Of a stretch of DNA of 64,000 nt, positions 4,536 through 53,824 are shown in pieces. Where the stretch lies: contig OZ237737.1 of NCBI GenBank assembly GCA_965178125.1, positions 806,001-870,000 of the forward strand. Direction: 5' to 3'. Position 1 is the first letter of the stretch. Each line of letters opens with the position of its first letter. The notes beneath the pieces were generated by a model. That model had not been told where the DNA came from. It saw nothing but the letters and a program-made list of their open reading frames with translations, and did not search any database. The DNA comes from Bilabrum cf. latius (Eukaryota). Both the position numbers and the translations under genes were made by a program.

Positions 4536-6755
4536 TTACGACGCAAGTTGCTCCAACGTTGCCAGGAATGCACCTACCGCTCCGAAATAGCCTTCGTGCT
4601 TCAGGAAAAGGCCTTCCATCTTGCCGCCCGACCAGAAGCGTATGGCATACGCGAGCGTCCGCATAGCTTCCTTATTCACCCCACAGTGCCGGAGAAAGTT
4701 TCCAGCGAAGACAATCCGGCTCACATCAAACCGAACCGCATTCAGGTACGCCACCTAGCCTATGTTGTTGGATACCATGAGCAGCAGAGCGCGGCATATG
4801 TCGCTACGTGCCGCTGCAGGCCTGCTCGGCAGCTTACTGCTAGGTCCCGTCTCATGCCTTCTGTTTGCTGCAGAGCCGCCTACTTCTTCATGTTCGACTG
4901 CTGTGGGTGACCTGGCAGACTGCATCACGACCCGCTCCCAGTCCTCCGTGGCAGCTCGTCTCCGATCGGCCACCACCCCTGTTCCAACCTTGTAAAAGGC
5001 AGGACCCAGCAGTGCTTCTTGTTGTTGGGGGTGCTACCGTTCAACACCAGCGGTAGAGCTCCCGTCGTGCAGAGTGCCCGCCGCCTGCGACTAGTTTGCT
5101 GTGCCGCCGTCCGAGTCTTCGATGCCGCCCTCGGTGGCCGCCTATTGCACCGAGGCACCGCTGTCTTCACCGTAGGCTGCTGACTCTTCGAACTCTGCCG
5201 CCGCGGCCGTATCAGCAGCCGATCCGACCTTGGCCCCGATGCCTCCGCTCGTCCACCTAGACGGGGGCGATGAATCCAGCGGCTTGGGAGCACCACCATG
5301 CGATGCACCCGATCCGATTCCAGATCCAGGCGCAAACTACCTCTCCTCCTCCTCCTCCTCGTCCTTAAAGCTGCCGCTAATACCATCGCCTGGCACTTGC
5401 TGCCTCGCCTGTCGCTACTTGTGCTGCTGCTTCTCCCTGTCTGCCGCCCGCGCGGCCGCCTTGACCCCAACCGACAGCACCTTCCCAAAGTTGCTAGCGA
5501 TGGTGCCCGCCGAGAGACCCACCACTCCGTAGTCGCCCCCATAAATGTCTCCCACGGTCAGGTCCACGTTCGCGTGATGGCCCTCCACCGCGGCCGTCAC
5601 CATGTCCTCGAAGCTGTCCAGGCCCGTGATCAGGTTCGCCAACCCAAAGAACGTTCCCCCGCCGATCGAGGTTCCGCTGACGCGGCGCCAGCTGGTTTCG
5701 CTCTCCACGAGCAGGATGCTCACCCCGCTGCCGATGTTTACGAGAAGGTAAGGGTACGGCCCGCTCGCTTGCGCCTAGCCACCCCGAGTGCACTCGCCTT
5801 TGCCTGAACCTCTCGGTGTCGCCGCCCCTGCCGCCTTCTGGTGGTCGGAGCTCCTGCCCGCCGCGGTCGATAGAAGCACCCTGGGCACCTCCGGGCTGCC
5901 CCTCTCCTCGCTCTCGAAGGTGTAGGCCTCCAAGGGCACGCTCTCGAGAAGGAAGGCCATCCCGCGGACCAGGCAGTCCAGCTCGTCCTGCGGCTTGAGC
6001 TGCACCCCGAGCGTCTGCTCCACCAGAGGGGCGAACTTTAGGCTGCCGCCACCAGTGGCGCACATGCTTCGCATGCTCTTGTTTAGGCCGTGCGCCCGGG
6101 CTAGCTGCAGGGCACCCCCGATGCGGCGCGTCTCGAACGAGACGAAGTGCATCGTGCCGCGCAGAAGCTCCGAGTGCAGCTCGAGCCTGGTCTCCCGCAC
6201 CCCCGTCCTGCCGAATCGCTGCCTAGATTTTAAGAACTGCGCAATAGATGAGACGCCTCCCTTCTGCGGGCTCTCTGGGTAGCTGTCGCTTGGGGAACCA
6301 CCGGCCGTGCGAGCAACCGGCGGCATGTCGCTAGCCGCCCTCTTAATCGGTGCGCCGGACAAGCCAGCTGAAGGCCTCGGGGAGTGAACTGGCGACGAGT
6401 CTCGCAACTGGGCGCGGGGCTCAAAGAATACAAGCTTGACGAGGCTGCCCCCTATATCCAACCCAAAGAATGCCCCGGTGTCGTCGATTCTGCGGAGTAA
6501 CCGAGCCACCGTCCTCGCATCACACGAAGGCAAGAAGCTAAGGCCAGCTGGTTTCAATCGATCCTTTGAGAGTGATTGCAAAGACTGTCCAGGAGCAGAC
6601 TTGGATCTTGCCATTGCTGGAGTGGACAAGTCACTCGCTGACCTTGATCTCGCCCCGTCAAGATCAACGCATCGAATCCGGCTTTGGCGCCATGATGCGA
6701 CGGTCACTGTAGCTAAAAGAAGTGCACTAAACAAGCACGAATCAAGGCTCTGCAT
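4536..6755 (-). CDS. PANK: Type II (eukaryotic, fumble-like) pantothenate kinase with low-complexity insertions
   Basis: Motifs GLDIGGSLVKLV, ATGGGS, ELDCLVRG, PYLLVNIGSGVSILLV, GTSIGGGTFFGL, DLTVGDIYGGDY, IASNFGK, SNNIG*VAYLNA, FAGNFLR and FLKHEGYFGAVGAFL lie in one frame. The frame is broken only by TAG at 5775, 5415, 5091 and 4755 and ends at TAA 4536-4538. Confidence 0.95.
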
Positions 6756-6958
6756 GTCCAGCCAATCTCAGCTCTAGAAGCAGCAACAAACTTGCTCCGT
6801 CATCTACGAATCGAACCACGCAGAACGTTCGCTGCGCACACATTTCTTCGATTTCATTTATTTACTGCACTAAGTGGCGGTAGTTGCCCATCTCCACCTA
6901 TCATCCCGGGGGATAGTTTGGTTTTACCCTCAGTTTTGTCCCGGCTTGGCTAATAAAT
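6756..6958. promoter_or_regulatory. Short intergenic region between divergent genes; probable bidirectional promoter
   Basis: About 200 bp, AT-richer than the flanking CDSs, between the start codons of PanK (-) and the hydrolase (+). No specific motif was identified. Confidence 0.35.
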
Positions 6959-8011
6959 ATGCTGGTATTTCGCATGTTGTGTTTGGTTACAGCTTCGTTA
7001 TGTATCTCAGCTGCCTTTGGCTCCGAAACATGGCGCACTGAGCTGTGTGAAACAAAAGCAAGACTTTCGTTTGCCGATGGTGTTTCGTTCCTATCCAGCG
7101 CGTTCGTTGGAGGGAGCCAGTCTTCCCGCTGGGTTGCACCGTTCGTTCATGGGTACTCATCCAAATAGAATGCCAGCTGGTGGGCCTCTGTAGTGGCTCC
7201 CGGCATTCAGAATCACACTGCAGTTGTTGCAATCGACATGCCTGGCCACGGACTGACAGTGCCACCAGTGGGCCTAGAAAAGCGCATGTCAAGCGCAGGG
7301 AATGTTGCGGCGGTGGAAGCGTTTCTTCGTCGAGCGATCTCAGGGTCCTTGTCTGCGCCTCGAGCGGGTGCAAGGTGTCTTGATTCGGGAGGTAGAGTGC
7401 GGACTGGCCCCGAGATTGCGCCGGAGGACGCGGCTGAGGCCCCCGGACATCCTGGACCGGCAGCAGGCAGGAAGGAGCGCCTCCCTAAAAAAGATTTGGC
7501 TGTGCTTGTTGGGCGTTCATGGGGAGGGGGCGTGGTTCTTCGGACCTTGGCAAAGCTAGCCAAGCAGGCGCGGCCTCCACCCTCAGGGGGCTCCGAGAGG
7601 AGAGGCGAGGGCGGTGGAGGCTCTTCACCGAACCGGGGGGAGAATGCTGATAACTAGACGGAATCTAGTGAGCTGCTGGATTCGACGAGTCGAGTCCTAG
7701 ATTCGGTGAAATGCGTCGTTTTGGTGGCGCCAGCGGTGCCCCGGATCCTGCTGGAGCAGTTGCCCGCCCGCATCCGAGAGCTGCCGATGCTGCTGGTCTG
7801 GTCCAAAGATGACCCCGTGGTGCCATTCAAGAACCACGAGCGAGTATTGGAGGCTTTCACCGGCATCAAACGCACCCTGTTTTTTGACACGGTGGTGCCT
7901 ACTGATGCACCGCCGGAGGACCAATGGCGCGGACATGCACCGGAGCAATAGAGACCGGTTGAGTTCTAGGACGCAGTTCTGGCACTGCTAGACGCTGTCG
8001 AGCAGACTTAA
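6959..8011 (+). CDS. Alpha/beta hydrolase fold protein with predicted signal peptide (ABHD14-like)
   Basis: Hydrophobic N-terminus; FVHGY, AIDMPGHG, nucleophile elbow GRSWGG, LLVWSKDDPVVP (acid) and GHAP (His). One frame with TAG at 7166, 7655, 7949 and 7967; ends TAA 8009-8011. Confidence 0.85.
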
Positions 8012-8352
8012 TCGAGCTGATATTCCCCTTTAACACCTTAGTAGTTGTTTATTCGGCTTGCAAAGTCGAAATCATTTCTGCTTGGACATGTGACGATCCA
8101 TATTCAAAGCTTCTGATGCATGCTAAAGCACTCGTTCGCAATCACAAGAATGGCAAGACTAGCAACCTTAGATTCGATCAAAAAGTCGGAGGATGACGCG
8201 AAACCAGAAGGATAGAGCTATTTCGCTGGGGGAGGCGGCGAAGGTGGATCGTAAGCACCATTTCCGAATGGGTTCAGGAACCAGGAACACGCCGGAACTT
8301 GAAGCTGTTTGCTTTTTCCTTCCACTATTTATTCCGTAGGAGCACTTCGATA

Positions 8353-8982
8353 ATGGGCGGAGCTAAGGCAGAGCGCAGCAGCGAGCCTGCCGGAATTACA
8401 ATCACAGAGTATAAAGGAGACGTATTTCGCGTGGACGATGGTCCGATCCGAGCTGCATCCGAAAACGAAGAGAATAGAAGATTCCTAGCCAGCTTACGAC
8501 GAGGGGAGGTGCCCACCGAACTTCGAGGCAGGAGCAAGGGTGGCTTGAGCGTGAACTACGTGGACAAGAAGACTGAGGATCCTCCCGCCCCGCCCAAGCC
8601 GAAGTTTGAGGGCTCGGGGCACCGCGCAGGACCAGCAGGAAGCGGAGCAGCCGGGAGTGGAGCGAGCGATGAAGCGCTCATGATTGGCACGGGCGGCGCA
8701 GCGGGCAGTGCCCAAGCCGCGCTCGACAGCGCCGCCAGCGGCGCTGCAGCTTCTGCACGGATGGCCGTGCGCCTCGCTACCGGGAAGAGGCTACGGCTGA
8801 CCATGGTGCCAGCGACAACGGTTCGCAGCATGATGGAGGCGGTCGCGGCAGAAACACCCGCAGGCGTGGCCTTCCGGCTGTACTACGGCCGCCCGGCTCG
8901 CGCTGTGGCTGGCGATTCGCTCGGCCTGGATGTAGAGGCGGCTGGGCTCAAGGGAGAGGCTCTCACGCAGCAGAACGTCTAA
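8353..8982 (+). CDS. p47/NSFL1C/UBXN2-like p97 (Cdc48) cofactor: SEP domain, SHP box, degenerate UBX-like C-terminus
   Basis: SEP-like FRVDDGPIR...NRRFLASLRRGEVPTELR; SHP-box-like FEGSGHRAG; ubiquitin-fold-like VRLATGKRL...TTVRSM...EAAGL. ATG 8353, stop TAA 8980-8982. Confidence 0.8.
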   Translation: MGGAKAERSSEPAGITITEYKGDVFRVDDGPIRAASENEENRRFLASLRRGEVPTELRGRSKGGLSVNYVDKKTEDPPAPPKPKFEGSGHRAGPAGSGAAGSGASDEALMIGTGGAAGSAQAALDSAASGAAASARMAVRLATGKRLRLTMVPATTVRSMMEAVAAETPAGVAFRLYYGRPARAVAGDSLGLDVEAAGLKGEALTQQNV

Positions 8983-9799
8983 GCGAAGTGGGAGCGCAAG
9001 CGTAAAAGTGCGTGAATGTATCGCACCTGAAGTGGCCCTTAAGCAACTGGTCGGCTGTCGCTGCGGTGGAATGCACGTGTCCAGATAACAAGACATGAAT
9101 GGAGAAAGATTCGAAATCGATAAGGCGCTTTCTTCGGACAATCGCAAACAAGCCAGCTCGAGCATACGCTCCTGAGCCGGGCCTGCGCGGGAACTAGTAG
9201 AGACGCCAGCCACTGGCATCCCACCCCCGCGACTCAGGCCCTGGCGCCAGCAGTGAGCGTCACCGAGCCGATTGCATATACCATGCAACGCTGCCGCGAT
9301 CCGAAGCCACCCCCCGGATCTAAACGTTTCCTGCACTGAGTCCCCATCAAGTCTAGGTGCACCCAGTCCCCTGCAGCCCGCTTCGCACGGAAGTTCAATC
9401 GTTCGAATGCGAAGCGAGCACGCAGCCTGCGCACGCCCTCCCTCTACCGTCTCCTCCTCTTCCGACCCTCTCACCCCACCCACGTCCGATGCGGGTACAC
9501 AATAAATAGTCCGCCGCCGCCGTTGCCATAGCAAGCACATATGCCAGCCGCCACGAGAGCCGTGCAAGGTACCGTGTGCGCGGGCACGCGCTTCAGCTGG
9601 ATCAGGGCACGGGTCACAAGCTCGCGCCTCCCCGATCCAAAGCCAAAGCAACGCCCACGCAACATATACACCTCCAAACGCAATAGCTCCGATTGCAGCC
9701 AACCATGCACCCGTCCCACCCCTCTAATTCGAAAGGCAGGCATTCGCAGCGTGCAGCTCTAGACCATCTCGCACCCCGCACCATCAATCCTCCGCAAGC

Positions 9800-14447: not shown

Positions 14448-14861
14448 GGCGAGGGGGATCAGTTGCAGAAACTCTAGTAGCTGAAGGCCTGACTTGCTTG
14501 CTTTGCCCTGAAGCTGGTGCGAGACCAGCCAAAGAACGAAGTTAATTGTGACTGAATGCTTCGGTTGATTTCCAAGGATCGGATCAAGGATTTTCAAACC
14601 GGAACACGATATTTCCAGGAATCCTCTCCACGGAAGACTCTGTGACGTGAGCAAGACTGCCAAAAAGACGCAGCTTCTTACAAGAGCGCGCGCGAAGTGG
14701 AAAGTAATCGCATGAAACCCCTTCGAGCAAGAACCGTTCCAAAGTTCCACGTGGTACTAGCAACCCATTGCACTGCTGCTTGCCGGCGCAACCAGGGCCG
14801 CAAGAGATCCGGATGACCCTACCGGCTCGCCACTACATTAACTGCCCGCAACTGCAATTCA

Positions 14862-17100
14862 TCAGCGGTACGTGGTGGGAGCCCCCAGCCCAGCAGGAGC
14901 TGCCTGAGGGTACTGCGGCACGGGTTTGCCCTTGGCCGGCCCTCCCGCACCTGCATCGCTGTATGGAGGATGTCCCGCCCCTCCGCGCGGGGCAGCTGCT
15001 CCGGGCCCGACTTGGTTGCCGCCCGCGAATCGACCGTACCCTGCGCTCTCGATCAGCGCAGGGTGAACCCCATAGAAGGTTCGGAAGAACTCGCCGAACT
15101 CCTGGGGATGGTTCGCCAGCAGCGCCTCGGGGTCCTGCGCGAAGAGCACGAACACCGTCTTGACCCCCGCTTCCACGGCCCCTGACACGAGCACGCTGAG
15201 GAACAGCCCCGTGAAGAAGGCGAGCACAGCGGCGAGGATGGTCATTGTTGTCCGGGTGTCCTTGCTTGCCTCGGCCGTGATGAGGAAGCCCACGCCGGCC
15301 CCTCCCACCGCGCTGATGCTTGCCACCACAAAGCAGCCCAAGGAGAGCGCCCGGTCGATGACGATGTCGTTTAGGAGTGCGTCCCAGCCGCGCCGCTGGA
15401 AGAGGTCCATGACGCTCTTGCCCGACTCCAGGAAAGGCTTGTTGTAGACGGCCACGAACACGTAGGCGTAGGAATTGATGTACTTGATCACGTCGCGAAG
15501 GATGTTCACGAGGCACTGCGGGCGCGGAGGACGTGGCGAAAGCATGTACTCATCCATACATGTGCACGAACGATTCGGGCGAGTACACGTCACACAGAGA
15601 GACTCGACCGTGGAGCCAACAACATAACGAGTTCCACATCCAGGAAAGCGTGCGGTGACCAGAATCACCCATGTGCGTATTATGCTCTCACCTCGGCCAG
15701 GCAAAGCAGACAGGCCTCGCAGAAGTTGCCCTCCCGCTGCTGCCTCCTCCTTGCATTCCTCAGTACAGCGGACAGGGCCTCCAAAAAGGCAACGAGGAAC
15801 GAACCGAAGGCGATGCTGCCCAGGGACTTGCTCCAGCTGTTGCACACGGCCTGCCACGCGGGCGAATCCACGCTCTTGGAGCTCCCGTCCTGGTCGTTCG
15901 TGAACCACCAGTGGCCGATGGTGCCCGACACGGTGGTTGCGACGGTGTTCTTGACGGTCTGCGGAGGCCGGGAGGCGAGGGGGGAAGGGGGTTCCAAGTG
16001 GTAGAAACAAGCAAGACTACAGAAGCAGGAGTAGCGCTCGAATTGAGAAGCATCGCGCCGAGACACACGCCAAATCCAAAAGGTCGGTCGGATGTTCATG
16101 CGATTGTATCGAACCAAGACACCCCCTCAGGCTCACCATGGATCCCCAGTATAGGGACAGGAGAAGCACGAAGCCGACTATTCCGGTCACTGCGGAAAAG
16201 CCAGTGTTGTCCCCGTCCGGATTCCCGTCGTCGTCCACAGCCAGGTCCCTGCTTGCAGGCATCGTGTAAAGGATGCGATCTCCCGACGCAGATCTCGCCG
16301 GGCTCTCCTGCTCGTTCTGCGCGCTGTCAGTGCCGCTCCCGGACTGGTTCACCGTGACCATCACGCCCACCACGGCGAGCACCCAGAGCGTCACCCAGGC
16401 GGCGTTGATGAATATCGAGGCAAAGGCGTACACGATGGAGCCCCAGTAGGTCTTCAGCACGTTTGCCGCCAGCGAGAGGGTGGCGGCAGCGAATGGGATG
16501 CGGTCGCGGATGCTGCACCAAAACCACACTGACAATAGCGCCAACAAGATGAAAATGATGGAGCCAAACGGCACCATAAACGCCATAACGATTGCACATG
16601 CGATGTTAACTGCTATTGATGTCCATACCACGCAGGTCAGAAGCGCTCCCGCGCATGTCGCCACGAAACTGAGCCACACGGCAGACGCGATCATGCCAAG
16701 GACAATGGCCGCACCGAGTGCGCTCATGAGCTCGGCCGTGTCGATCGCATTGTCACTGCGAGCTTCTTTAGTACTGCCTTCACCCGCGACCAGCTCAGCC
16801 TCTCTGTTGAGCAGCGGTACGCCGAGCCCTAGCCCGAGACCAACGATTGCCAATGCATGGATCCAGAACAGGGTGGCGCATACCATGTCCTGGCATTGAA
16901 ATGTCTGTGCAATAAGATCAAAACGATACAGGATGATAGCAATCATGCCTAATCCTGCGGTGATGATGTGCGCTTTTCCGTGAAATCACCCCAGCTCTTA
17001 CGTTTAACCTAGGGGCATTGGGTGCCGTCTTTGGATCAGTTCGAGGGGTCTACGCAACCAATTGATCTTGATCATAGTAACCCTGACCACTGTATGCCAT
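14862..17100 (-). CDS. Choline transporter-like (CTL/SLC44, PNS1-like) multi-pass membrane protein
   Basis: Motifs RIPFAAATL, TVSGTIGHWWF, SLGSIAFGSFLVA and KYINSYAYVFVAVYNKPFLES. GT-AG introns at 16905-17001, 15959-16136 and 15516-15691. ATG 17100, in-frame TAG at 17050 in exon 1, stop TGA 14862-14864. Confidence 0.9.
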
Positions 17101-17706
17101 GATGAACGGATTTAAATGCTAATCTTGTGGGTGGAAGAGGCAGGGGATCCAAAATTCTTTTGTGGGTGTAGTAGAACTTTGGTGAACGTTCTTTTGGTGC
17201 CAGTGGTTGCGACCATTCGCAGCGACCTGCGACAATAAATTGTGGATTGTCGATCCAATGTTCAGGTTGTAATAATCGCAGTCTTAGGGTCATTGGTTTG
17301 GTCCCTGGTTCGTTTAGCGATACAATCACTTAATTTGTGCTGGCGTTCACGAACGGAGGGCGTGAGAGTCGTGAATACACATTTGATGGGCAGAAAATTG
17401 TCTCAAGAAGTCAAGGCTGCCTTCGGTTCGGTCATCGATGTGTTTGCATCAACTCCCATGTCCAATCTGTCCGACACTTAACACTCTGCCCGTAAGAGCG
17501 ATAATCTATTGCCTTCCTTCAATAACTACCGCAGGCCATGGCCGGATACGGGTCAACTACTGTCATGTGGGCGTGTCTTGTGGCCCTGCTATCAAGTCAC
17601 GTTGATGCTAACTGCTCCGGTACTCGTCGGTATTATATCCAAGCTAGTGGTGCTATTACGTAAGATTCAACCCAGACCAAGTCCGTTTCGTTGGCCGAGG
17701 TTCCCA

Positions 17707-35214: not shown

Positions 35215-35690
35215 GAGGGTAGGTAGAGACGCATATTTTATCATTTAACAGGCAGGCCTCCATGCGAAGGCAGCCCTGTACTTGCATTAAGACAGTCAGA
35301 CGAGGGACGAACGAACGGTGAGACGGGTCACACTGTGGCTTTACGCTGCCAATGGTCCACACGCGCAAGCGTGTGCTCCATGGCTATACGCGACGTCTTG
35401 GAAGTGAATTCCATGGTTCACCGCGCTTGTAGTCGCCTAGTTTGATTTTTACATTTTTTGCCGGTGGTTGCGACCATAGGCCTTAGTATCATTTTCTACT
35501 CCGAGTATTGCACGTCGCGACGCAACAAAATGTTTTATACTCGTTCAGCCCCCACATCATGTCACATCGAACGTGAAGAAATTCACGGAAGACTGGGTTT
35601 TTGGTACAACGTCATCAAGATTCACTTGTTGATTGTATCAAAATCCATCCGACCGACTCTGTAAATCTGAGAAGGTCTATCTGCACCGTC

Positions 35691-38600: not shown

Positions 38601-41600
38601 CACGCTGTTTTACATCAGCGGCTGCAGCGGTCAGGTGTACCTGGCTCGTGGACGCACCCTCGACTACGAGACAGACCCTGTCAAGTTCATCACGGTGCGT
38701 GCCACCCCCCTGCAGCAGCCCGAGCAGGGAGCCGAGTTCCGCATCCCAGTGTACCTTATCGACGTGGACGAGCCCCCGCTGTTCATTGAGCAGATGAACT
38801 TCACCCAGGCGATCCGGACTGTGCCCGAGAACGCTGCCCCTGGGTCTGCCTTCCCCGACGCGAAGCTGACGGCTATCGATCCTGAGGGTAAGGACGAGGA
38901 CACGGAGTACTCGATCTTCTCGATGGATCAGGACGCTGAGGTGGGTGGCCCCGACGGAGAGCCACTGTTCACGATCGACCCGGATGACGGCACACTGCAC
39001 GTGGGTCCTGCCGGCGGGCTGAGCTTCGAGCGCTTCAGCGAGTACAAGCTGCAGGTGCGGGCCACTTCGAAGGTGAACGCCGCTATCTTCTCCCAGATGG
39101 CTGTGACGATCCGCCTGGAAGACCGCAACGACGCCCCGATGTTCCCCGAGGACATCCAGGAGATCACGGCTCGCTTCTCGCAGCTGGCCGACATGGCCTG
39201 GATCGGCACCGACACGATCGCTGTGGAGGACGAGGACGTGAACTCGACTGTGTTCGTGCAGCTGCTGCAGAGCTCCACCGGAGTGGTGCATCGCGACCTT
39301 CCCGGGCCTGGCTCCGACATCACCCGCAAGAACTACGTGGGCATCGAGGGTGGAGAGCCTGGCAACGCCACCGCTGGTCGCTTCTACTGGACTGAGGCGC
39401 CCAACGCGACCGCCGATATCAGCTGGACGGACCAGATCTACGATGGTCAGTTTGTGCGCCTGGTGTACACCGTGAAGGTGAACGCCACTGACAACTACGG
39501 GGCCACGACGATCGGCGACGTGCGCATCATCCTGGTGTCCGACGAGAGCGGCGGCACTGACAGGCCGCTGGTGGAGTCCGTGACTATGCCGACTGGCACC
39601 GCCTTGACCACTTCTGGTGGCGAGACCCTGCGTTTCGCCGGATCTCGCTTCTCGCGGGCCACTGGCTTCCGTGTGGTGGGCACGAACGCGATCGGACGCA
39701 GGTACGAGACCACCAGCTGCACTGCGACCGATGACAACACCCTGGACTGCACGTCTCCCGAGGGCACTGGTTTGTGCAACTGGGTGGTGTACGCGATGGT
39801 GAACGGCGAGGAGATCCGCAGCTTTGCCATCGGGCGGATGGAGTTCACGTACCAGGCTCCCAACATCACGGCCGTGACCATGGATCAGGTGGCCATCAAT
39901 GCAGGTGGGCTGAACACCAAGGGCGTGGGCTCTGGGTCTTCGCATGAGCTGAACAGCAAGTTCGTAATCACTGGCACTGACCTGGGCAGCGACCCGCAGG
40001 CTGTGATGGTGTACGTGGGCCGGGTGACCCCTACCTCTAGCGAGTACCGGTTCGTGTCAACGTCGATCGAGAGCGCCGACCATGGCTCTCTGCTTGTGGG
40101 TGCCCCTGAGGGCATCGGTGCTGACCTTCAGATCCGGGTGTCTGTGGGTGGGCTCTTTGTCGATGCGCCCGACAGGCAGACCGTGACGTATGCTCCTCCT
40201 CGCGTGATCAGCCTGCGCTCTGGCATTACGAGCTCGTTCACGTACAACCACAACATGGAGCCGGAGGGGTGGTCGTGGGAGGCCGAGTACCAGACCAGGT
40301 ACGACCAGGAGATCGCCCGTGGCGACACTCATGAGCAGGCACATGCTGATGCTACCAGGTATGCTGACTCGAGGCGCATCTGGAACCGGTTCATCATCAC
40401 CGGCGAGAACTTCGGTCCCATGGAGGTGCTTGGAGCTGAGACCAGGCCGCTTGTGTACTTCGGCCCCGACTGCTCGAGGCAGTTTGAGCTGCTGAGCTGC
40501 GAGCTTACCCAGGCATCCACCCAGATCACGTGCGAGGGATACACGCGCGGTGCTGGCGCCCGGCACGGCCTCAGCGTGAGGATCACCGACAACACGAACG
40601 TGGTGCTTGCGCCTGACATCCTGTAGGACGAGCAGTGCAGCCACGAGGAGAGCACGCTGCCGTCGACCAACATCGTGTACCGGACCAGGTCGCTGTCGTA
40701 CAGGCCGCCCCAGGTGTACCAGCTCATCAACCCGCCTCAGCAGGGCAACACTGCCGGTGGCGATGTGGTGCGCATCCGTGGCCGGTACTTCGGCAACCCC
40801 AGCTCCGAGCTGCCCGTGACGGCGTACTACGGCCCTGACCCTGTCTACCGCTGGCCCAACTACCCCGGCGACCAGCTGAAGGCGACTGCCGGTACTGAGT
40901 CCATTGAGGCGTCCACCTGTGTGGTGCGCAGTGACGACATCATCGACTGCCAGATGGCAGCTCTGCCTGAGTGGATGGACGCCAACGGCCCGCATGCATG
41001 GACCGTGGAGGTGGGTGGCCAGGTGGCTCTGTGGAGCCGTGGCTTCACCCGGTACGGTTTCCCCACTGTGACTGGGCTGACCGGCGAGGGTGCTGTGCGC
41101 GCCAACACCACGGGTAGCCAGAAGGTGGTGATCGATGGCCGCAACTTCGGCCCCGTGGTACCTGACACGGTGAACTACATCGCGCAGGTGGCAGACCCGG
41201 GAGGCATGAACTCAACCTACGAGGGTCGCGTGAACGTGTCGCTGGCCCAGGGCCTGACCATGGCCCCTGCGCCCGCTCTGGGTGATGGCTCTGGCCTGGT
41301 GGTGCTGGACCCCCGTCGCGACTGCGTGATGACACAGGCGCACTACCAGCTGGAGTGCATGACCCTGCCTGGCGCTGGTCGCGCCCTTGAGTGGATCGTG
41401 GTGGTGAATGGTGAGCGGTCTCGCGTGCCCCAGGCATCGTACAAGGCCCCGACCGTGAACGAGATCATGATGCCCGGCACACCCACGGATCGTCGTGTGG
41501 AGGACGCTGATTCGGCTGGCGGCACCTGGGTGCTGGTGACTGGTCAGAACTTGGGCCCCCCCACCCGCGATATGTATGACCCCGAGCAGTCGTCCGGTGC

Positions 41601-44600
41601 GATGGTGCAGTGGGTGGAGTACGGCAAGACCGCGACTGGCGAGTGGAACAGCGCGCTGAACTACACGGTGATCTCCCATGAGCAGATCATGGTGCAGCTG
41701 GGCCCCGGCATCGGGCGTGACTTCCAGATTCGCGTGTCTGTGGCCGACCAGGTGAGCGAGGCGAGCGGTGACGGCGGCAACGACCCCCGCGGTACGTTCG
41801 ACTTCAGCCTGCCCACGCCGCTGTACGTGACCCCGAATGTGGGCAACCCCAAGCCCATGCCTTGGAACTCGGAGACCCTGGTGATGTTCGCCAGGCATTT
41901 GCCGCCGGCCAGCGACCCCACTTCCGCCGTGGTTGGCCTGTGGGACCCCAGCTTCCCCCCTCGCCCCGCCTCTCTGGATGATGACTCCATCCCCGATGAC
42001 GACGAGGGCAAGACTCAGGACCGCGAGCAGTACGAGCAGGCCGTGCGGAGCTACCTGGGCTCGCTGGTGCCCATCCATGCCGAGCAGCTGGTGAACGATA
42101 CCGCCGCTTGCGTGTTCGTGGACACCCTGGACCGCGGTACGGTGAACAACCTGTGGCAGCAGTACGATGTCGGTGGGAAGGTGGCTGGGTACCAGTCGGG
42201 CCAGGGCCTGCCCCTGGACGTAGGCGCTGTGCGTGTGGTGGTGCCTCCTGGATTCGGCCGGGGCCACGTGCTTGGCCTGGGCCTCGTGGGCATGGACGCT
42301 GCGACCGGCATGGTGGCTACAAACGCCGAGGTGGAGTCTCGGTCTGACTGGGAGAGCCTGAAGCAGTTCCACTACAATGAGCCGGAGCTGGACTTCCCCG
42401 AGATGACCACCGTGGCTGTGTCTGGCGACGATGAGCTCAAGCTACAGGCCACCCGTGCCTTCGGTGGACAGCCTTCAGAAGCTGATTCGTTCTCTCGCAA
42501 CATCTGGGAGGTCACGCTACGCGGCCAGAGGCTGTCGGACTGGTTCGAGCTGCTTCCCGACCAGGACGCCGGTGCCACGGAGACCCCGTACCGGCTGATC
42601 ACGCTGGAGCCCGGGCCGGATCACATGGAGCCTGTGCCTGGCGGGAACCCTGTGGCCGAGGGCCGCACGCTGATGTTCTACAAGGGCAACTTCGCCGAGG
42701 ACACTGCCGGTGGCAACGTGAGCGCTTCTGGTTGGGTCTCGCACGTGCAGCAGACGCAGCTGCCCGCTGATCAGCGGGAGTTCCAGCTGATCGCGTGGCG
42801 CGATGACATGATCAGGCTGTGGGTGCGCGCCGGCACCTTCACGGTGCGTGCTGTGGTGGAGACGACGAACAAGCTGGACGAGGTGAAGGGCACCGTGCCC
42901 GCCACCGAGCACACGTACACGACCAAGGACGTGGTGGTCTCTCAGGAGGCTCCCATCATCTCGGACCTCGTGGGCCAGCCCCCGGGCGGGTACCCCACGA
43001 CGGGCGAGGGGCACGTGCTAGGCCTCGCCTTGCCGTTCCGGTCGCTCACATCGCAGGACGAGAAGGGCGTGCTTGCGCTGTTCGGCAACGACTGTGACGA
43101 GGTCAACTACAACGACCAGCGGATGTGCAATGGCCGTCTGCTGAACCGCCGCCAGGTCACGACCAGCCCCATCACTGCTCCCGAGCCGGTGATCTACGCT
43201 GACCCCCTCACTGGTGTGACGTACGAGCCCGACACGACTCCTGGCGCCGAGTCTCAGTCTCGCTTCGTGACCGAGGGCAGCGGTGCTGCCACCTTCGTGC
43301 GCGCTGCCTGCGAGGCGTACTACCAGGCAACTACCTCAGCGGCACCTCAGCTGGAGGACCTGTGCTTCTTCTGGGTACGTGTGCCGGCAGGGCAGGGCCG
43401 TGCTGTGTCCGTGCGCGTGTATGCCGGCACCCAGCTGTCTCCCGCCGTGACCATCGACTACGCCGAGCCCGTGGTGACCGCCATCGAGGTGGATGGTACT
43501 GCCTTCGCCGGTACGTCGGCTGCCAACGCGGCCACGTTCCCGTCGACCGGTGGGGCCATCGTGCTTCAGGGCCACAACTTCGGCATGAAGGCCACCGTGA
43601 CATTCGGCGATTCGTACTCGCTGGTGGCGTGCAGCCAGGCTGCCATGACGAACAACTTCGTGGGCTTCAGCTCAAGCGACTGCGATGCCACCATCACCAT
43701 GGACTCTGCCACCTCCGGCATGGCTCGCATCACGGTGGATGCTCCTCGCGGCCAGGGCGCATACGATGAGCTGGTGCTGGTGGTGGACCACGGCCTGGGC
43801 CACGACTCTGACCCTGTGCGCTTCAAGTACGAGATGCCTATGATCTCGAGCGTGGTGCTGGCCACGGAAGATGCCGGGGATGTGGAGCAGTCCATGTTCG
43901 GATCTCTGGGAGCCCGCGATGTGGAGGTGGGCCAGGACAGTCAGGGCAACCCCTTCACGAACGGATACCGCATGCCCACCACTGGCATCGACCTGGATGA
44001 CCAGCACTACCAGGCTCTGGACAGGTATGGCGTCAAGGCAGATCTGTGGATCGTGATCCGCGGGTCGGGTCTCGGCCAGTACCACCCCCTGGTGTACCCC
44101 GTGGACGAGTCAGCGCGCGTGTACATCGGGCGCAACGATGCCGCCGGCGAGATAGAGGTGGACAGCATGTACGTGGTGCGCGACATCACGACTGAGGGCG
44201 CGGGTGAGTCTCTGATCGCCGTGCCTCTGCCCGAGGGCGGTGGTGCCGACTACTACGTGCGCGTGGTGGTAGCAGGCCAGGAGTCCAACGTCTACACGGG
44301 TGCGTTCAGCTATGCCCGGCCCGTGATCCAGTCTGTGGAGGTGATCACGTCTGCCATGAGCGATGGCTCGCTGCCCGCCGTGTCGAGCAACTCCCTGACT
44401 GTGTCTGCTCAGACCCTGTCTTTCAGTAGCTCTGGCGGATTCCTGGAGGCGCCCCCCACGGGAGGTGCTGTGGTGCGCATCCGTGGGCGCAACTTCGGCC
44501 GCCAGGTGCTTGCCCAGGCCGACTCGCAGGGCCGCGAGACCGGCAAGGTGCAGTGCGCGTTCCTGAGCCACATCGACCCTCCCCCAAGCTGGGTGCCTAC

Positions 44601-47600
44601 CTCTGGTGCCAGGCCCATCCCCACGTGCGATGGTGCCGAGACGTACATGGGCGAGGGCGAGGCCTTCACGAACAGCACTGACCCGTCTAGCCCGAGTCCC
44701 CAGTCCGTGACGTGGAGCCACACGACCGTGGAGATGACCATCCCCGAGGGCATCGGATACCGTGTGGTGCTGCTGGCCGCTCGTGGTGGCGCACTGGCCT
44801 CTCTGGAGCCGCAGGCATCGACCTTCACTCCTTCGGGTGTGATCATCCCTGGATGGAACGATCCAGACACGACACCTGCCTTGGTGCCCCGCGCCGTGCC
44901 TCTGCGGTTCGCGCCTCCTCAGCTGAGCGGCCTGACGTACTACGTGCCCGAGGGCGAGGCCACTGGCGAGGACGTGGGCGAGGATGCACTGACTCGCATG
45001 AGCGCCGCACATACTCGCGGATCGACCGTGGTGCTGGAGGGCCGCAGCTTCGGCCCCGACACCGTACTGGACGAGCTGACCAACTCGGAGACCGAGGACG
45101 TGTTCCAGGAGCTGGCCCAGCCGCGCAGCCTGCCTCTGGGTGCCGCGCACCGTGCGCCCATGGACCATGTGCGTGTGCTTGTCGGTGGTGGCTGCCGCAC
45201 GGACAGCATGGAGTGGTCTGCGACGAGTGTGGACGTGCGCCGCGACGTGGTGGACGGGCTGATCCCTGCCCATTGGGCTGCCGAGGACGAGGTGATCCAG
45301 GAGGTGCGCAGCTGCATGCCTCGTGGCGTGGAGGAGCGCACTGACACGAGCATGCGTGTGGTTGTGCCGCCTGGTGTGGGAGCCAGCAAGCAGGTGTCTG
45401 TGGAGGTGGTGCGCGCTGCACCTCTCCGCCTGAGTCCGTCTCTGGTGGTGCCCATGTCGCAGGCACCCCCCCTGTCGTCGTCCAGCTCTGGCTCATCCAT
45501 GGTGACGTACGAGTACCGTGACCCGGAGCCCACCCGTGTGGATCCTGGCTACATGTACATCACGAACTCTGCCCAGATCGGAGCCGCTGCCGAGCCCGAG
45601 GACATCGTGGTGTTCGGACGGTATCTGGGCCGCTTCGAGGACGAGCGGTCTGTGCGCAGGCCTGCGAACGATTCGTTCCAAAACGTGCGGTACGTGCAGG
45701 ACGGTTGGAACCTGGAGCTGGCCATCAACGTGACCAGCATGTACACTCAGGACGACCTTGAGTTCGACATCGGCGCGCCTGAGGGCGAGGCAGCCGAGGG
45801 CAGGCGTCTGCAGGTGACCGAGAACGCCACGCTGGCGATGCACGTGAACTGCTCCGACGTGGTGGCCCGTGTGGAGAAGGGCCAGGGAGGCCGCGGGCAG
45901 CCCGAGGCGTGGGAGGATGCCATCCGGTGCCCCACGCTTCGTACCGACCTGCTGACCGCCGGTCCCAAGGCTGTGAGCGTGCGCGTTGGCTCGCTGGAGG
46001 GCGAGCTGTCGGCCGAGAGCTCGAACAAGCTGATCGTGGGCTGCGACTTTGGGTACTTCGGTGGTGTGGGCGAGACGTGCCTGCAGTGCCCTGTGACCCG
46101 TCAGGGCGAGATGGTGGGTGCCATGTGCGCCGGCTACGACTCTGAGACTGACTCGCACACGTACCCGGTGTCTCGCCGTGGCTGGTACGACCTGAAGACC
46201 CCTGATGAGCTGTCCATCTGCCCCGTGACTGGCGGGCAGCGCGGCGATGAGGTGGCTCGTGGTGTGTGCGTCGTACCTTGCGTGCCCGCCGAGGCTTGCA
46301 TGGGCGACAACACGTGCGCCGAGGGCTACGAGTCTAAGGCTCCTTCGTTCAGGTGCGCCGCGTGCGCCGAGGGCTACTACAAGAAGGCCGGCGTGTGCGC
46401 CAAGTGCCCCGACAACCCGTGGGTGGTGATCGTGGCGTTCATCATCGCTGCTGCCTGCGCCGGTGGCATGGGTCTGTGGCTGAACTCGACCAACATCAAC
46501 ATCGCCATCCTGTCGATCGGTGTGGACTGGTTCCAGGTGGTGTCTCTGTTCGCCAACGCCCGCATCAAGTACCCGCCTGTGCTGGACGACCTGCTGACGT
46601 ACATGTCTGCGTTCAACCTGAACATCTCCCTTGCCGTGCCCGAGTGCATCAGCCCGAACGTCGGGTGGGAGCAGAAGTTCTACTTCACCATCGCATTCCC
46701 GCTGGCCGTTGGCGTCATGCTGTTCCTTGCTTTCGCCAGCTTCGCGCTGTACAAGTACCTGGTGCTGGGCCGCAGCGACAAGCACTCTACTTTCTCGCAT
46801 GTGAACAAGCTGATCTCTGGCGGCATCATCGTGTGCTACTTCCTGTACCTGTTCGTGACTGCCACGCTGATGGAGGCGCTGAACTGCATCAAGGTGGACG
46901 ATTCGGATCCGAACACGTACATGCTGGTGGGTGACCTGGAGCCATGCTACGAGCCCGGGGGGCTGCACATGCGTGTGTTCCCTATCGCCATTGTGTTCAT
47001 GCTGTTCTACACGTTCGGCTACCCCGCCATCCTGGGCTACGTGCTGTGGAGCAACCGGGAGCGCATCATGGAGGACCAGCTGCTGCGCGCCAAGGGCCTG
47101 GGGTACGACCGCATCAGCAACCCCCGCGCGTACGATCTTCGCAGGTCGATCGAGCGGTCGTACTTCGCGTTCCGTCCCGAGTACGCCGCCGGCACGATGG
47201 GCTTCAACTCTTGGATCGTGGTGATCCTGGCCCGCAAGGCACTGATCGCCATCACTTCGCTTGTGTGGGCGAACAACTCGTCGCTGCAGCTGTCCGTGAG
47301 TCTGCTTGTGCTGCTGTGCGCGTACGCCATGCAGGTGTACCACCAGCCGTACATGGCCCCTGCCGACCGCGAGGAGACTCTGCGCCATACCATGATTCTG
47401 GCCCTGGAGGACGAGCACAGCATCTGGGCCAAGCTGCAGAAGAACGTGAAGGAGGTGGAGAAGCGCCTGCAGAAGACCGGGCAGAAGACCGACTGGTCGC
47501 GCCCGAACCAGTCCGTGCGATACTCGAACCCCGTGGCCCAGGCCATGGGCTCCGTGGCCGTGGGCATGTTCTCGTGGAACACGCTGGAGTCGGGCCTGCT

Positions 47601-48489
47601 GTTCTCTGCTCTGCTGATCAACCTGTCCGGCATCTGCTTCAACGCGATCCAGACTCAGTGCGAGATCGAGAACAACTGCGACTTCTTCCAGCCTCAGGTG
47701 GACACTCTGCTTGGCCTGGTGCTGACGCTGATCTTCACGTCCATCTTCTACTTCATCTTCGTGCTGGTGACGGAGATCTCATACATGTACCAGGAGGAGA
47801 TGGTGCGCCGCGGCAAGATGCGGCCGGACGAGCTTTAGACGCTGCCCGAGCAGATCATGGTGTGCTGCGGCTGCGCCGACGAGAACGCGCAGGCTCTGCT
47901 GGTGAAGCAGCGCAACATGAAGAACTCCAAGAAGGGCTCCTCCAAGCGCAAGCTCGTGGCCGATGCACTCGAGGCGCAGGAGGGCGAGCCCGCGGACGCC
48001 GACATGTCCGCCAACCCGATCTTCAAGCGCCTGGCCGAGAACGCCGAGAAGGACGCCGCCGCCAAGAAGGAGGACGCGGAAGACGGGCCCGTGATCGAGG
48101 AGATCCCCGACGCGGATGGGCGCGGCGTGACCGAGGCGGAGGCCCAGGAGATCCGGGAGCGCGCCCAGGTGGTGCTGCAGATGCGCAACCCGCCGAGCGG
48201 CGCATCGTGGGAGCAGATCCGCAGCAACTACGTGAACCTGTCCAAGCACATCGAGGAGCTGGCCCGTCAGATGCGCCGCGCAGGCGTGCAGGGACGGCGC
48301 GGATCGAGCTTGGAGACAGCCGCGGCAGGTGCTCGCCGCGGCCGCGCCGGAGGCAGGCGCGTCGGTGGCGGTGCTCGCGGTGGGGAGGGACGCAAGGCCT
48401 TTGGCCAGATGCAGACCACCTCCACCAGCGGGGCCACTGCTGACGGCGGCATGGTGAACCCCATGGCTGCCAAGAAGGGGGGCAAGTGA
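35691..48489 (+). CDS. Giant (~4,100 aa) surface receptor: signal peptide, ConA/LamG-like and Sushi-like domains, 2-3 cadherin domains, IPT/TIG-like repeats, Cys-rich region, about 9 TM segments, tail (paralogue A)
   Basis: ATG 35691 MLSFAIACIMAACAMAQLVP; several short 5' exons (donors gtgag at 35791, 36012 and 36172). Main exon 36820-48489 is one frame with TAG at 37867, 38584, 40624 and 47836 and stop TGA 48487. Cadherin motifs LDYE, DVDEPP and DRNDAP. The TM region resembles that of the 17707-35214 gene. Confidence 0.9.
37920..45622 (+). repeat. Copy 1 of a near-identical segmental duplication (partner 56298-64000)
   Basis: Landmarks match at a constant offset of 18,378 bp (38584/56962, 40624/59002). 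The ORF track shows identical shadow ORFs at the same offset. Confidence 0.95.
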
Positions 48490-52000: not shown

Positions 52001-53824
52001 CACGTGTCTGAGGATTTCAACGCGGAGTTCGTTCACATGGAGCCCTACGGCATGCAGATCGCGAGAGCGATACATGCAGGCGTGTCAACGCTGGTCAAGT
52101 CAGCAGCAGCCGCGAGGGTCGGAGAGATTGGCGCCGGGCTAGCTGCAGCCAAGATGGTGCAACATGTCCTGAACAATTAGCTGCGAAAGCAATTGCTGCC
52201 TCTTTTGGGCGGCGGTGTGGAGCTGACAGAAGGAGACACAGCCAGCACCGGAGCAGGCGTATTGGAGGGCACTACTAGCGGAAGGACGCCGTTGATGGAT
52301 GCAGGTCCTCTCGGCATTATGTCAGGGCTAGCGGCTGCAAGCGATGCAAGCCTGGTTCTTGCAGGTGCACTGCTTGATGGCTCTTCTCCTAGGCACCTCG
52401 AATCGTCAAGGGCAGCTGCCTACGACGCTTCGAGGTCGGTGGGAGCCGTGCTTCGAAGGTCCATGCAGCGCTTCGAGTGGTCCGTGAGGAGGCATTTACT
52501 GCCCGACCTGGCAAGGCGGCTTCCGGCTCATTTGCTGCCCCCTTCGCTGCCTGGCATCGATGATATCGCGCAGGACCACGCAAGCGGTGACGGGATGCCT
52601 GCACATGCAGGGGGGCACTCCACGGGTGGTGACCCGCACGAGAACGGCCTGGAGGAAGCGAGAGAGGCGTTGTATGTAGCTGTGCAGCACGAAAAGGCAA
52701 AGGAAGAAGAAATTCGCGGAAGCAGTCCGAGTCGCCGTGGTAGAGGTGAATCGCATGACCACAACCAGTTGCGCTACCCTGATGATGACCGGTACGATGA
52801 GTATCCCGCCGACGCCCCTGCCACACTGGACCGCGAGCTGCATGATGTGGACCGCGTCTGGAGCCGCCCGCCCAACTGGACCCTCTCTGGCAGCCATAGC
52901 GACGGTGGTCCTGGCTTTGGCATGGGACGCGGGCGCACGCGATCGCAGCTTCATCGGCCGGAGCAGGTGCACGTGCCCTCGATGTCGCGGGACTGGCTCG
53001 CAGGGGAGTTGGCGGCCGACTGGCTCAGCTGCGCCCTGAGGCATAGCCTGGCGGCTGTTTTGTGGGCGGAGGTGGGAGTGCATCGCACGAACGTGTCGAT
53101 CACGCCGGACCTCCGTTGGGCCGCCACAGGTGACGGCGGCAGCATCTCCCGCCCTGTGCAGGACCTTCTCCATGGACTGTGGCCCTCAAGTGGGATGCAG
53201 CTGCATGTGTGGCTAGATGAACCCTTGGACTACTCGTCGTTCAACCAGGGTGCGCGGGGGCTGGCGGCTCTGGAGGAGTCCATCCACTCGATGAGGCTCG
53301 GCGCCGCGGGCGAGCACGAGGCTGTGGAGCAGCTGCTCGAGCTGATCCGTGCGACGTCAGGGGTGCCCGTGGTCATAACTTCGCGGCATGCTTTGCATAC
53401 GTGTCCGTAGTACCCCTTCAAGCCCCCTTCTGCAACGAGGGATGCGGAGCTTTCAGGCAACAAGCGGCCTGCGGGTGGTAGCCGGTTTGCGGTCCGACTT
53501 GTCGACTTGTGGCAGCCTTGGCCTGGCAGTGGCACAGATGGAGCGTGTGATAACATGGAAAGGCATGCTGGGCGTGCGGCCGCGGAAGAATATATCGTGG
53601 AGGATGCGTCTTTGGCCCCCGCTCACGGCGTGGGACCCGACCACGGAGTACCGGAGCATGGGGCTCCAAAGGTGAACCCAGCGGGCGCATGCCTTGGCGC
53701 ACACGGAAGTAATCGCCCTGGAGACTAGACAGGCAGCGTAATTAGCAGAAGCATGTTGCATGTACGGGCATGGACAGGGCCCACCGAAGCAACGCGGCAA
53801 ATAAGGAAGCTAATCCGGAGCTAA
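49070..53824 (+). CDS. FOXRED2: FAD-dependent oxidoreductase, FOXRED2/ERFAD-like, with long C-terminal extension
   Basis: Signal-peptide-like start; ILGGGPAGVQ; YPKFRKLISINKRYT..EFELRHDWNSLL; VLIVGRGNAAFEVA; RLAWETHYPGDVR; SGGFVHGFRYLIRA; LYQMFGQL; FLHPV; HVSEDF. One uninterrupted frame with 12 in-frame TAG (49250, 49511, 49715, 50582, 51446, 51491, 51581, 51671, 51689, 52178, 53408, 53726), ending TAA 53822-53824. Confidence 0.88.

Follow-up and report, generated by a model that had tools for sequence, protein, structure and literature searches.

Do the TAG codons that lie inside the genes of this locus specify an amino acid, and if so which one, while TAA keeps its role in termination? The question concerns a window of 64,000 nucleotides, that is, the whole stretch of DNA analysed here, for which the sequence-only reading had proposed that UAG is uncoupled from UAA. 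The explanation we consider probable is that the window derives from the nuclear genome of a protist with few introns and about 60% GC, in which cytoplasmic ribosomes decode UAG as glutamine and terminate at UAA and UGA.

Genes of the window and their in-frame TAG codons

Each of the ten genes in the window (Table 1) has at least one in-frame TAG. Their open frames, which reach 1,200 to 5,500 codons and are covered by Pfam domains, are far beyond chance. Across the ten genes, the 17,862 codons assigned with confidence contain 51 TAG and neither TAA nor TGA in the coding frame; the same codons read in the +1 frame give 59 TAG, 32 TAA and 449 TGA, and in the +2 frame 60, 53 and 403, respectively. 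From this comparison of the three frames, TAG is equally common in frame and off frame, whereas TAA and TGA are excluded in frame.

Table 1 Genes of the 64,000-nucleotide window, with their support, transcripts, in-frame TAG codons and ends
Gene	Position	Strand	Support	Introns and RNA contigs	In-frame TAG	End
Cadherin-repeat gene, Cys-rich N-terminal part	2..3676	-	Cadherin PF00028, E 1.2e-80		905, 872	Off left window end
Type II pantothenate kinase (Fumble, PanK)	4536..6755	-	PF03630, E 3e-104	RNA contig 4511-6722, letters identical to window	5775, 5415, 5337, 5142, 5091, 5034, 4755	TAA 4536-4538
Alpha/beta hydrolase	6884..8011	+	Pfam	RNA contigs 6878-8057 and 6892-8002	7166, 7655, 7949, 7967	TAA 8009-8011
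SEP-domain (p47-like) gene, two exons	8150..8982	+	SEP PF08059	Intron 8251-8339	8213	TAA 8980-8982
EF-2/EFL1-like GTPase, 1533 aa	9800..14401	-	Pfam	RNA contigs spanning 9110-14530	12503, 9860	TGA 9800-9802
Choline-transporter-like (CTL) gene, four exons	14862..17100	-	PF04515	Introns 15516-15691, 15959-16136, 16905-17001	17050-17052	Tandem TGA TGA, first 14862-14864
Giant cadherin + IPT/TIG + multi-pass membrane protein gene	18571..35214	+	Cadherin E 5e-167, TIG E 5e-36	5' exons uncertain; introns 18382-18475 and 18567-18668 from RNA	19, from 19954 to 32608	TGA 35212-35214
Paralog A, IPT/TIG membrane protein	37018..48489	+	Pfam		37867, 38584, 40624, 47836	TGA 48487-48489
Flavin oxidoreductase-like gene, 1584 aa	49070..53824	+	Pfam		12	TAA 53822-53824
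Paralog B	55165..63999	+			56962	Off right window end

The raw long frames hold 55 TAG, of which some are non-coding, the questioned ones being 16017, 18817, 19135 and 6914. Thus, TAG 16017 is intronic in the CTL gene and TAG 6914 precedes the first ATG of the hydrolase gene, while TAGs 18817 and 19135 belong to the 5' part of the giant frame, where reading the sequence leaves both the exon structure and the frame in doubt; RNA joints show just two introns before these two TAGs. The corrected count is 53 in-frame TAG, namely the 51 in confident codons plus one each in the first exons of the SEP and CTL genes. Set beside 556 CAG and 64 CAA, TAG makes up 7.6% of the glutamine codons in the window and is a minor glutamine codon, its use being highest in genes with weak codon bias. 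The EFL1-like GTPase has a big insert separating the N-terminal from the later part of its G domain, and the open reading frames within 9110-9800, which its RNA contigs also span, match no Pfam family.

Contigs from three sequencing runs (X5, X6 and X7) carry GT..AG joints that are missing from the DNA run X1, and none of the runs that contain this sequence is catalogued as RNA; it is because of these joints that we take the three runs to be RNA. The SEP intron is represented by a GT..AG joint (8250/8340) in two RNA runs. For the CTL introns, two or three RNA runs carry the three CT..AC joints, all of which the DNA run lacks. Over positions 4000-21000, the contigs of the three runs show no letter difference from the window. 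They cover 15 TAG codons (seven in PanK, four in the hydrolase, one in SEP, two in the EFL1-like gene and one in CTL), all unchanged in spliced RNA contigs, and RNA editing is therefore excluded.

The amino acid at TAG positions

Conserved positions, paralogs and an environmental relative provide evidence on the residue inserted. At PanK residue 667 (TAG 4755), in the motif NNIG-x-VAY, 120 homologs gave 122 alignments; the column is glutamine in 119 of them, and Leu, Glu, Lys and Met are all absent from it. A second, Leu-rich PanK column (residue 473, Leu in 18 of 30) was dropped, as the homologs' C-terminal block had been misaligned onto an insert. In the cadherin-repeat gene, TAG 905 completes a D-P-D-x-G-TAG motif whose corresponding place is Gln in five of eight other repeats. 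Paralogs A and B, which share 94-100% DNA identity in 200-base samples from about 38,000/56,378 on (offset 18,378), allow a more direct comparison: TAGs 37867 and 40624 of A are CAG in B, and at 38584 the two share TAG, with the remaining codon differences being 91 synonymous and 43 not. The 36-residue first exon of the SEP gene found no match in the PDB; we presume that its TAG is perhaps the Gln of the p47 motif 'GQ.FYAGG'.

The metagenome relative, L001, aligns to residues 2317-4000 of the giant gene with 77% protein identity. Its frame 0 is open for 1769 codons with 8 TAG and no TAA or TGA, compared with 44 and 66 TAA/TGA in the other frames, so that the TAG trait is common to at least one metagenome relative. 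None of 17 TAG positions is common to the window and L001, which counts against the reading; the 17 TAG-versus-sense pairs comprise CAG (8), GAG (2), ATG (2) and one each of GTT, GCA, TCG, CAC and GGC. The log-likelihood of these pairs, calculated with a substitution table from the same alignment, is -36.9 for Gln, -52.7 for Met, the next best, and -59.7 for Glu. TAG sites thus pair with Gln in 47% of cases, and true Gln codons are conserved in 55%. The internal repeats likewise place Gln ahead of Lys, by 7.7 log-likelihood units, on counts that are not independent, and the Cafeteria protein P0142 has Gln opposite TAG 29410. Taken together, these data support TAG as a sense codon, with the evidence pointing to glutamine.

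Two alternatives bear on this conclusion. One would leave the code unchanged and regard the TAGs as sequencing errors, pseudogene lesions, RNA-edited sites or leaky stops decoded by a normal near-cognate tRNA, and the lack of a cognate tRNA in the window speaks for it. We find it hardly credible, given that the letters are identical in one DNA and three RNA runs from different studies, that all ten genes are affected although apart from TAG they are intact for as many as 5,500 codons without a single TAA or TGA lesion, and that L001, an independent relative, has its own TAGs; leaky readthrough, for its part, cannot sustain a codon at the frequency seen here. The other alternative accepts a sense codon but assigns it a different residue (Glu, Met, Leu or Lys), and UAG does stand for Leu, Glu or Ser in other lineages. 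It draws on the oxidoreductase-like gene, where the column at the TAG of residue 61 is Leu (67) or Met (33) in 139 homolog alignments, at a variable site where one homolog has Gln, and on four TAG sites that face Glu, Glu, Met and Lys in close relatives. Yet GAG and AAG are one base from TAG, and changes between Glu or Lys and Gln are common. Moreover, the near-invariant Gln of the PanK column, the margin of Gln over Met (15.8 units) and Glu (22.8 units) against L001, and the fact that both TAG differences between the paralogs are TAG/CAG make a residue other than glutamine highly improbable.

Gene ends and the meaning of TAA

The four TAA and four TGA ends listed by the sequence-only reading were all found in place, and its statement that no in-frame TAA occurs also holds, as none of these frames contains an internal TAA or TGA. 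Its further observation that no gene ends in TAG is correct in that eight of eight ends are TAA or TGA; as evidence it is partly circular and weaker than it appears, because reading TAG as sense forces every end to be TAA or TGA. With that qualification, the proposed uncoupling stands: TAG is sense, and TAA and TGA act as stops.

That TAA terminates and is not sense is a conclusion we hold with moderate confidence; four TAA ends are observed. If TAA were to TAG as CAA is to CAG, 5.9 in-frame TAA would be expected in the pooled genes (Poisson probability of none, 0.003), or about 13.8 when summed gene by gene, and none precedes the ends. Past seven of the eight stops, including three of the four TAA, the codon-usage score changes sign from positive to negative, and coding score and GC content fall directly after three of four TAA; the oxidoreductase-like gene shows no such drop past its TAA, which is followed two codons on by a second in-frame TAA. 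Where PanK ends is not settled by homology, with homologs a median of 27 residues longer and 12 of 118 ending within 10 residues. Its RNA contig stops 25 nt past the TAA, short of the next in-frame TGA (+19 codons), although the end of a contig is an unreliable guide to an RNA 3' end. For TGA, the C-terminal residue of P0125, which is 93% identical to the EFL1-like protein, coincides with the TGA at 9800.

Could both UAA and UAG encode glutamine, with UGA as the sole stop and TAA rare because A-ending codons are avoided? The scarcity of CAA relative to CAG would fit, as would the longer PanK homologs and the in-frame TGA that follow the hydrolase and SEP TAA within 3 and 11 codons, respectively, inside RNA contigs. 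We nevertheless judge this code very unlikely, in view of the deficit of in-frame TAA calculated above, the eight TAG and no TAA of L001, the fall in coding score and GC content after three of four TAA, the PanK contig that ends before the next TGA, and the 126 codons that separate TAA 53822 from the next TGA. Another proposal is that UAG is glutamine within genes and a stop for some of them, according to its context or to how close it lies to the mRNA 3' end, as in the ambiguous stop/sense use known from Condylostoma and karyorelicts, and for UAA from Blastocrithidia. Three of eight genes (hydrolase, EFL1-like and oxidoreductase-like) have a TAG 13-31 codons upstream of the TAA or TGA that closes the frame, which in the hydrolase and oxidoreductase-like genes could be the actual stop, and eight ends are too few to show that TAG stops are absent. 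In the EFL1-like gene, by contrast, TAG 9860, 20 codons before the stop, faces Lys in P0125, and 17 of the 19 downstream residues are identical, with the same end, which shows this TAG to be sense despite its nearness to the gene end. In the hydrolase, a motif that we take to be the usual C-terminal helix of such enzymes lies downstream of the last TAG. Furthermore, the nucleotide after TAG has the same composition as that after CAG, and five genes (PanK, SEP, CTL, the giant gene and paralog A) end in TAA or TGA without any TAG in their final 70 codons. We regard context-dependent use of UAG as unlikely, and we retain UAG as glutamine, with UAA and UGA as stops.

A code of this kind is normally expected to come with a tRNA-Gln(CUA) and with an eRF1 that has ceased to recognise UAG. 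Decoding would thus be carried out by a tRNA-Gln(CUA) unable to pair with UAA, together with an eRF1 whose recognition of UAG would be lost or weakened. Both had been said to lie outside the window; indeed, ARAGORN and Rfam found no RNA genes, tRNAs included, across the 64 kb, and the window contains no eRF1.

Related codes, affinities and significance

The UAG=Gln, UAA/UGA=stop code was formerly listed as NCBI table 15. Codes in which both UAA and UAG are glutamine (NCBI table 6) occur in many ciliates, Dasycladales, hexamitin diplomonads, Streblomastix and Amoeboaphelidium; they share UAG=Gln with the window but also read TAA as Gln, whereas here no in-frame TAA occurs against the 5.9-13.8 expected. 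The claim that UAG-only reassignment is known from few eukaryotes is borne out by two papers, which describe it in Iotanema spirale and a rhizarian (PMC5304391) and in certain ciliates as well as Scotinosphaera, a green alga (PMC11687900). So far, this rare type of code has been recorded in a single gut flagellate and a handful of ciliates, and the present organism is a further case.

The closest parallel is Iotanema spirale (Fornicata; Panek et al. 2017, PMC5304391), which has an identical codon table, with UAG=Gln and UAA and UGA as stops. As in the window, in-frame UAA and UGA are absent, and the predicted mechanism is the same, namely a tRNA-Gln(CUA) with an altered eRF1; the counterparts of our 47% and 55%, for UAG at conserved Gln and for canonical Gln codons, are 41% and 44%. 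Stop usage differs, as Iotanema uses mainly UAA (104 UAA versus 15 UGA) and the window has four of each. Iotanema is, moreover, an anaerobic gut flagellate, whereas the organism studied here combines about 60% GC and giant cadherin/IPT genes with matches to Cafeteria roenbergensis and not to fornicates, and the origin of its code is almost certainly independent of that in Iotanema. Among ciliates, Hartmannula sinica, Trochilia petrani and Protocruzia tuzeti are described in McGowan et al. 2024 (PMC11687900) as reading UAG as Gln with UAA still a stop; like the window, they have UAG alone changed to Gln, in most genes, and the paper gives no sign of dual use in them. The Phyllopharyngea covered there have 27.4-53.6% GC and use UAA as stop in 86.9-98.3% of genes, with UGA rare (PMC11687900). 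The window differs from those ciliates in its GC-rich DNA, its few, short spliceosomal introns and its equal use of TGA and TAA. UAG is also uncoupled from UAA, albeit with a different amino acid, in the rhizarian exLh and a TARA phyllopharyngean lineage (UAG=Leu), in Scotinosphaera (UAG=Ser) and in Oligohymenophorea sp. PL0344 (UAA=Lys, UAG=Glu); for the TAG of the window, the likelihoods against L001 make Leu, Ser and Glu far less likely than Gln.

The organism is neither a ciliate nor a fornicate; among named species, the stramenopile Cafeteria roenbergensis gives the best matches. A PanK tree was built with 37 rows (the query and 36 picked from the 120 homologs), and in it the query falls in a well-supported 8-row clade (SH-aLRT 99) whose other seven rows are environmental proteins; Leptophrys vorax supplies the best named PanK matches, yet its proteins are not tree neighbours of the query, and a protein atlas yielded no usable taxon. 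In the open-access literature searched, no stramenopile or bicosoecid was described as having UAG=Gln. We would tentatively raise the possibility that the organism is a stramenopile-like heterotroph related to bicosoecids such as Cafeteria, and the first of that kind with a reassigned nuclear stop codon. Its code would then represent an independent origin of UAG=Gln with UAA=stop, at 60% GC, and be shared by a clade that occurs in environmental metagenomes. On this tentative reading, AT-driven 'codon capture' could not explain the loss of UAG as a stop, because the genome is 60% GC.

The public runs offer both DNA and RNA data for this organism, and its genes are intron-poor. Standard gene callers truncate genes at each TAG, leaving the public proteins of the organism as fragments, and P0125, whose start lies midway along the EFL1-like gene, is perhaps one such fragment. 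The high GC content is the reverse of the AT-rich setting usually invoked for stop-codon loss. Since at least one environmental relative has the same trait, the age and spread of the code change are traceable. Cases in which UAG changes its meaning without UAA are few, and they serve as natural experiments on how eRF1 tells UAG from UAA and also inform the charging of a tRNA-Gln with a CUA anticodon.

Gene content and in-frame TAG

Under the standard code the long reading frames of the window, whose GC content is 57–66%, are broken; once TAG is read as sense, they join up to give ten long genes, and Pfam domains back the names given to these. No tRNA or other Rfam RNA was found within the 64 kb.

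Genes of the window, with window-relative coordinates
Gene	Coordinates	Strand	Support for name
Cadherin gene	2-3676	minus	Pfam
Type II pantothenate kinase (PanK)	4536-6755	minus	Pfam
Alpha/beta hydrolase	6884-8011	plus	Pfam
SEP-domain gene (SEP)	8150-8982	plus	Pfam
EF-2/EFL1-like GTPase (EFL1-like)	9800-14401	minus	Pfam
Choline-transporter-like gene (CTL)	14862-17100	minus	Pfam
Giant cadherin and IPT/TIG membrane protein, ~5,500 residues	to 35214	plus	Pfam
IPT/TIG paralog A	37018-48489		Pfam
Flavin-oxidoreductase-like gene, between paralogs A and B	49070-53824		Pfam
IPT/TIG paralog B, near-identical to A	55165 to window end		Pfam

The 17,862 confident codons contain 51 TAG in the reading frame and neither TAA nor TGA. 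In the two off-frames of the same codons, TAG occurs 59 and 60 times, TAA 32 and 53 times, and TGA 449 and 403 times. Thus, TAG is not avoided in frame, while TAA and TGA are fully excluded. The first exons of SEP (TAG at 8213) and CTL (17050–17052) bring the total to 53, with at least one in-frame TAG in each of the ten genes. Four further TAGs in the raw frames were classed as noncoding or doubtful: that at 16017 is intronic, that at 6914 lies upstream of the first ATG, and those at 18817 and 19135 fall in the 5′ stretch of the giant frame, where, judged from the sequence, neither the exon structure nor the reading frame is certain; the RNA joints mark only two introns, both upstream of the two TAGs. 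Overall, TAG makes up 7.6% of all glutamine codons in the window genes if counted among them. Its share peaks in the genes of weakest codon bias (7/32 in PanK, 4/11 in the hydrolase and 12/65 in the oxidoreductase-like gene, compared with 4/158 in paralog A).

The two paralogs encode IPT/TIG membrane proteins of roughly 3,800 residues and flank the oxidoreductase-like gene as direct copies 18,378 bases apart (37,900-45,622 and 56,278-64,000). In 200-base samples taken from about 38,000 onward, their DNA is 94–100% identical across the shared part, and identity declines toward the 5′ ends. Short conserved pieces further upstream, around 35,700 and 54,050, encode a similar signal-peptide-like stretch in both and look like first exons.

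TAG in the RNA

Contigs from four public sequencing runs were compared with positions 4000–21000 of the window, and no letter differed in any of the four. One run (X1) yields a single unspliced 41-kb contig and is therefore DNA. The other three (X5, X6 and X7, from two studies) yield contigs of gene length that contain joints at 8250/8340, 15515/15692, 15958/16137, 16904/17002, 18381/18476 and 18566/18669. Since all six joints have GT..AG ends on the strand of the gene and none occurs in X1, these runs were taken as RNA. Their contigs cover 15 TAG codons (seven in PanK, four in the hydrolase, one in SEP, two in EFL1-like and one in CTL). Sequencing error at TAG is ruled out for the genes in these contigs, whose letters are identical to the window, and RNA editing is ruled out for the same five genes because the RNA keeps TAG. 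UAG is decoded as sense, with glutamine as the best fit, in mRNA that retains UAG.

Several features of the contigs are recorded here in their own right. The RNA contigs of EFL1-like extend about 690 bases beyond the TGA (9110–9799) at a depth equal to that of the gene body, and those of other genes run 25–165 bases beyond the stop. No Pfam family was found for the ORFs in 9110–9799, and contigs of the DNA run and of two RNA runs diverge into other sequence at 9526/9527; the stretch may represent a long 3′ UTR, a separate transcript that went unrecognised or the edge of a repeat. Contigs of the DNA run and of two RNA runs also share a joint that jumps over 952 bases (19,625-20,578). It was rejected as an intron given its AA..TG ends, and is probably a collapsed or polymorphic copy of a cadherin repeat in the giant gene. 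Within 19,319-19,487 an extra exon end is predicted (...TGC TCG GGC TAG, followed by GTGAGT), the matching acceptor lying near 19,487; the run contigs report no RNA joint there. This exon end would add one further in-frame TAG, within a C-S-G-x-C motif that reads C-S-G-Q-C at the corresponding place in the cadherin gene.

The amino acid and the remaining stops

Glutamine as the meaning of UAG is supported in five ways. For PanK, 120 homologs were found, and in 119 of their 122 alignments residue 667 (NNIG-x-VAY, TAG at 4755) is opposite Q. Paralogs A and B differ by TAG versus CAG at 37867/56245 and 40624/59002 and have TAG in common at 38584/56962; their remaining codon differences comprise 91 synonymous and 43 non-synonymous changes. 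A scan of JGI metagenomes returned one relative (L001; 5,308 bp, 57.7% GC), which shares 77% protein identity with residues 2317–4000 of the giant gene. Its frame 0 is open across all 1,769 codons with eight TAG and no TAA or TGA, versus 44 and 66 TAA/TGA in frames 1 and 2. Codon-by-codon alignment places a TAG opposite a sense codon 17 times (CAG eight, GAG two, ATG two, and GTT, GCA, TCG, CAC and GGC one each). The log-likelihood of TAG identity, calculated with a substitution table derived from the same alignment, is −36.9 for Gln, −52.7 for Met and −59.7 for Glu, and TAG sites are paired with Gln at 47%, compared with 55% conservation for true Gln. Among repeats inside the cadherin/IPT genes of the window, Gln is ahead of Lys by 7.7 log-likelihood units, although these counts are non-independent. 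Lastly, TAG 29410 is matched by Q in the Cafeteria roenbergensis homolog.

Some sites are opposite other residues. At residue 61 of the oxidoreductase-like protein, in the dinucleotide-binding motif, 139 alignments give L 67 and M 33 times in a column that varies among the best hits (V, S, A, I, F and one Q). Close relatives have E, E and M (protein homologs P0140 and P0141) and K (P0125) opposite TAG. GAG, AAG and CAG are each one base from TAG, and none of the TAGs in L001:1-5308 (eight) and window 25,519-30,570 (nine) occupies the same codon; together these facts fit a young, fast-turning-over minor glutamine codon. Fast turnover is expected of a minor synonymous codon one transition from CAG.

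The sequence-only reading had proposed that UAG is uncoupled from UAA, with UAA and UGA left as stops. Every stop it listed was verified (TAA at 4536, 8009, 8980 and 53822; TGA at 9800, 14862, 35212 and 48487), and the absence of in-frame TAA was borne out over the confident codons. That no gene ends in TAG holds for these ends, but as evidence it is circular in part: once TAG counts as sense, every frame must continue until it meets a TAA or TGA. If TAA stood to TAG as CAA to CAG, 5.9 in-frame TAA would be expected in the pooled genes (probability of none, 0.003), or about 13.8 when summed gene by gene; ahead of the frame ends there is none in the window genes or in L001. Downstream of seven of the eight stops, GC falls and the codon-usage score becomes negative, the exception being the oxidoreductase-like gene. 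In the RNA, the PanK contig runs 25 nt past TAA 4536 and does not reach the following in-frame TGA, 19 codons away, contig ends being weak markers of RNA ends. Homology does not settle where PanK ends: of 118 homologs, 12 have their last residue within 10 residues of that point. As to TGA, CTL ends in tandem TGA TGA, and the Logan protein P0125, 93% identical to EFL1-like, has as its last residue the one preceding TGA 9800.

TAG might instead have a dual meaning, as stop or sense by position. Against this stands TAG 9860, which is 20 codons before the EFL1-like stop: P0125 has K opposite this TAG and 17 of 19 identical residues downstream, so the TAG is read through even this close to the gene end. 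The base that follows TAG has a distribution similar to that of the base following CAG. The hydrolase and oxidoreductase-like genes could conceivably still stop at a TAG 13–31 codons before their frame ends.

Decoding, affinity and comparison

As argued in PMC5304391 and PMC11687900, UAG is read without UAA by the CUA anticodon only. The decoder expected on this ground would be a tRNA-Gln(CUA) that probably arose from tRNA-Gln(CUG), together with an eRF1 whose recognition of UAG would be weakened (PMC5304391, PMC11687900). The eRF1 of Iotanema has the change T32G.

The collections searched contain no close named relative. For EFL1-like, the best named match is Cafeteria roenbergensis P0126 (1,534 aa), alignable over most of its length and almost exactly equal in length to the window protein, in which an insert of ~430 residues separates the N-terminal motifs of the G domain (residues 29–94) from the remainder of that domain (from residue 529). 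The giant gene likewise has its best named match in Cafeteria roenbergensis (P0142), and Aureococcus is among the matches for both. In a PanK tree of 37 rows (the query and 36 chosen from the 120 homologs), the query groups with seven unnamed environmental proteins (SH-aLRT 99). The organism is clearly neither a ciliate nor Iotanema-like; an affinity with stramenopiles counts as a lead rather than a result.

The codon table is the same as that described for Iotanema spirale (PMC5304391) and for three ciliates, Hartmannula sinica, Trochilia petrani and Protocruzia tuzeti (PMC11687900). At conserved glutamines, UAG and true Gln codons show the same pattern in Iotanema (41% versus 44%; PMC5304391) as the 47% versus 55% here. 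Other UAG-only changes are to Leu, Ser or Glu, unlike the glutamine of this organism. A search of open-access literature found no report of UAG as glutamine in a stramenopile or bicosoecid. Four things are new: the lineage; a genome that is rich in GC and poor in introns; the balanced use of TAA and TGA as stops (4 and 4, versus 104 and 15 in Iotanema, PMC5304391); and the evidence of the trait in a relative from an independent metagenome.
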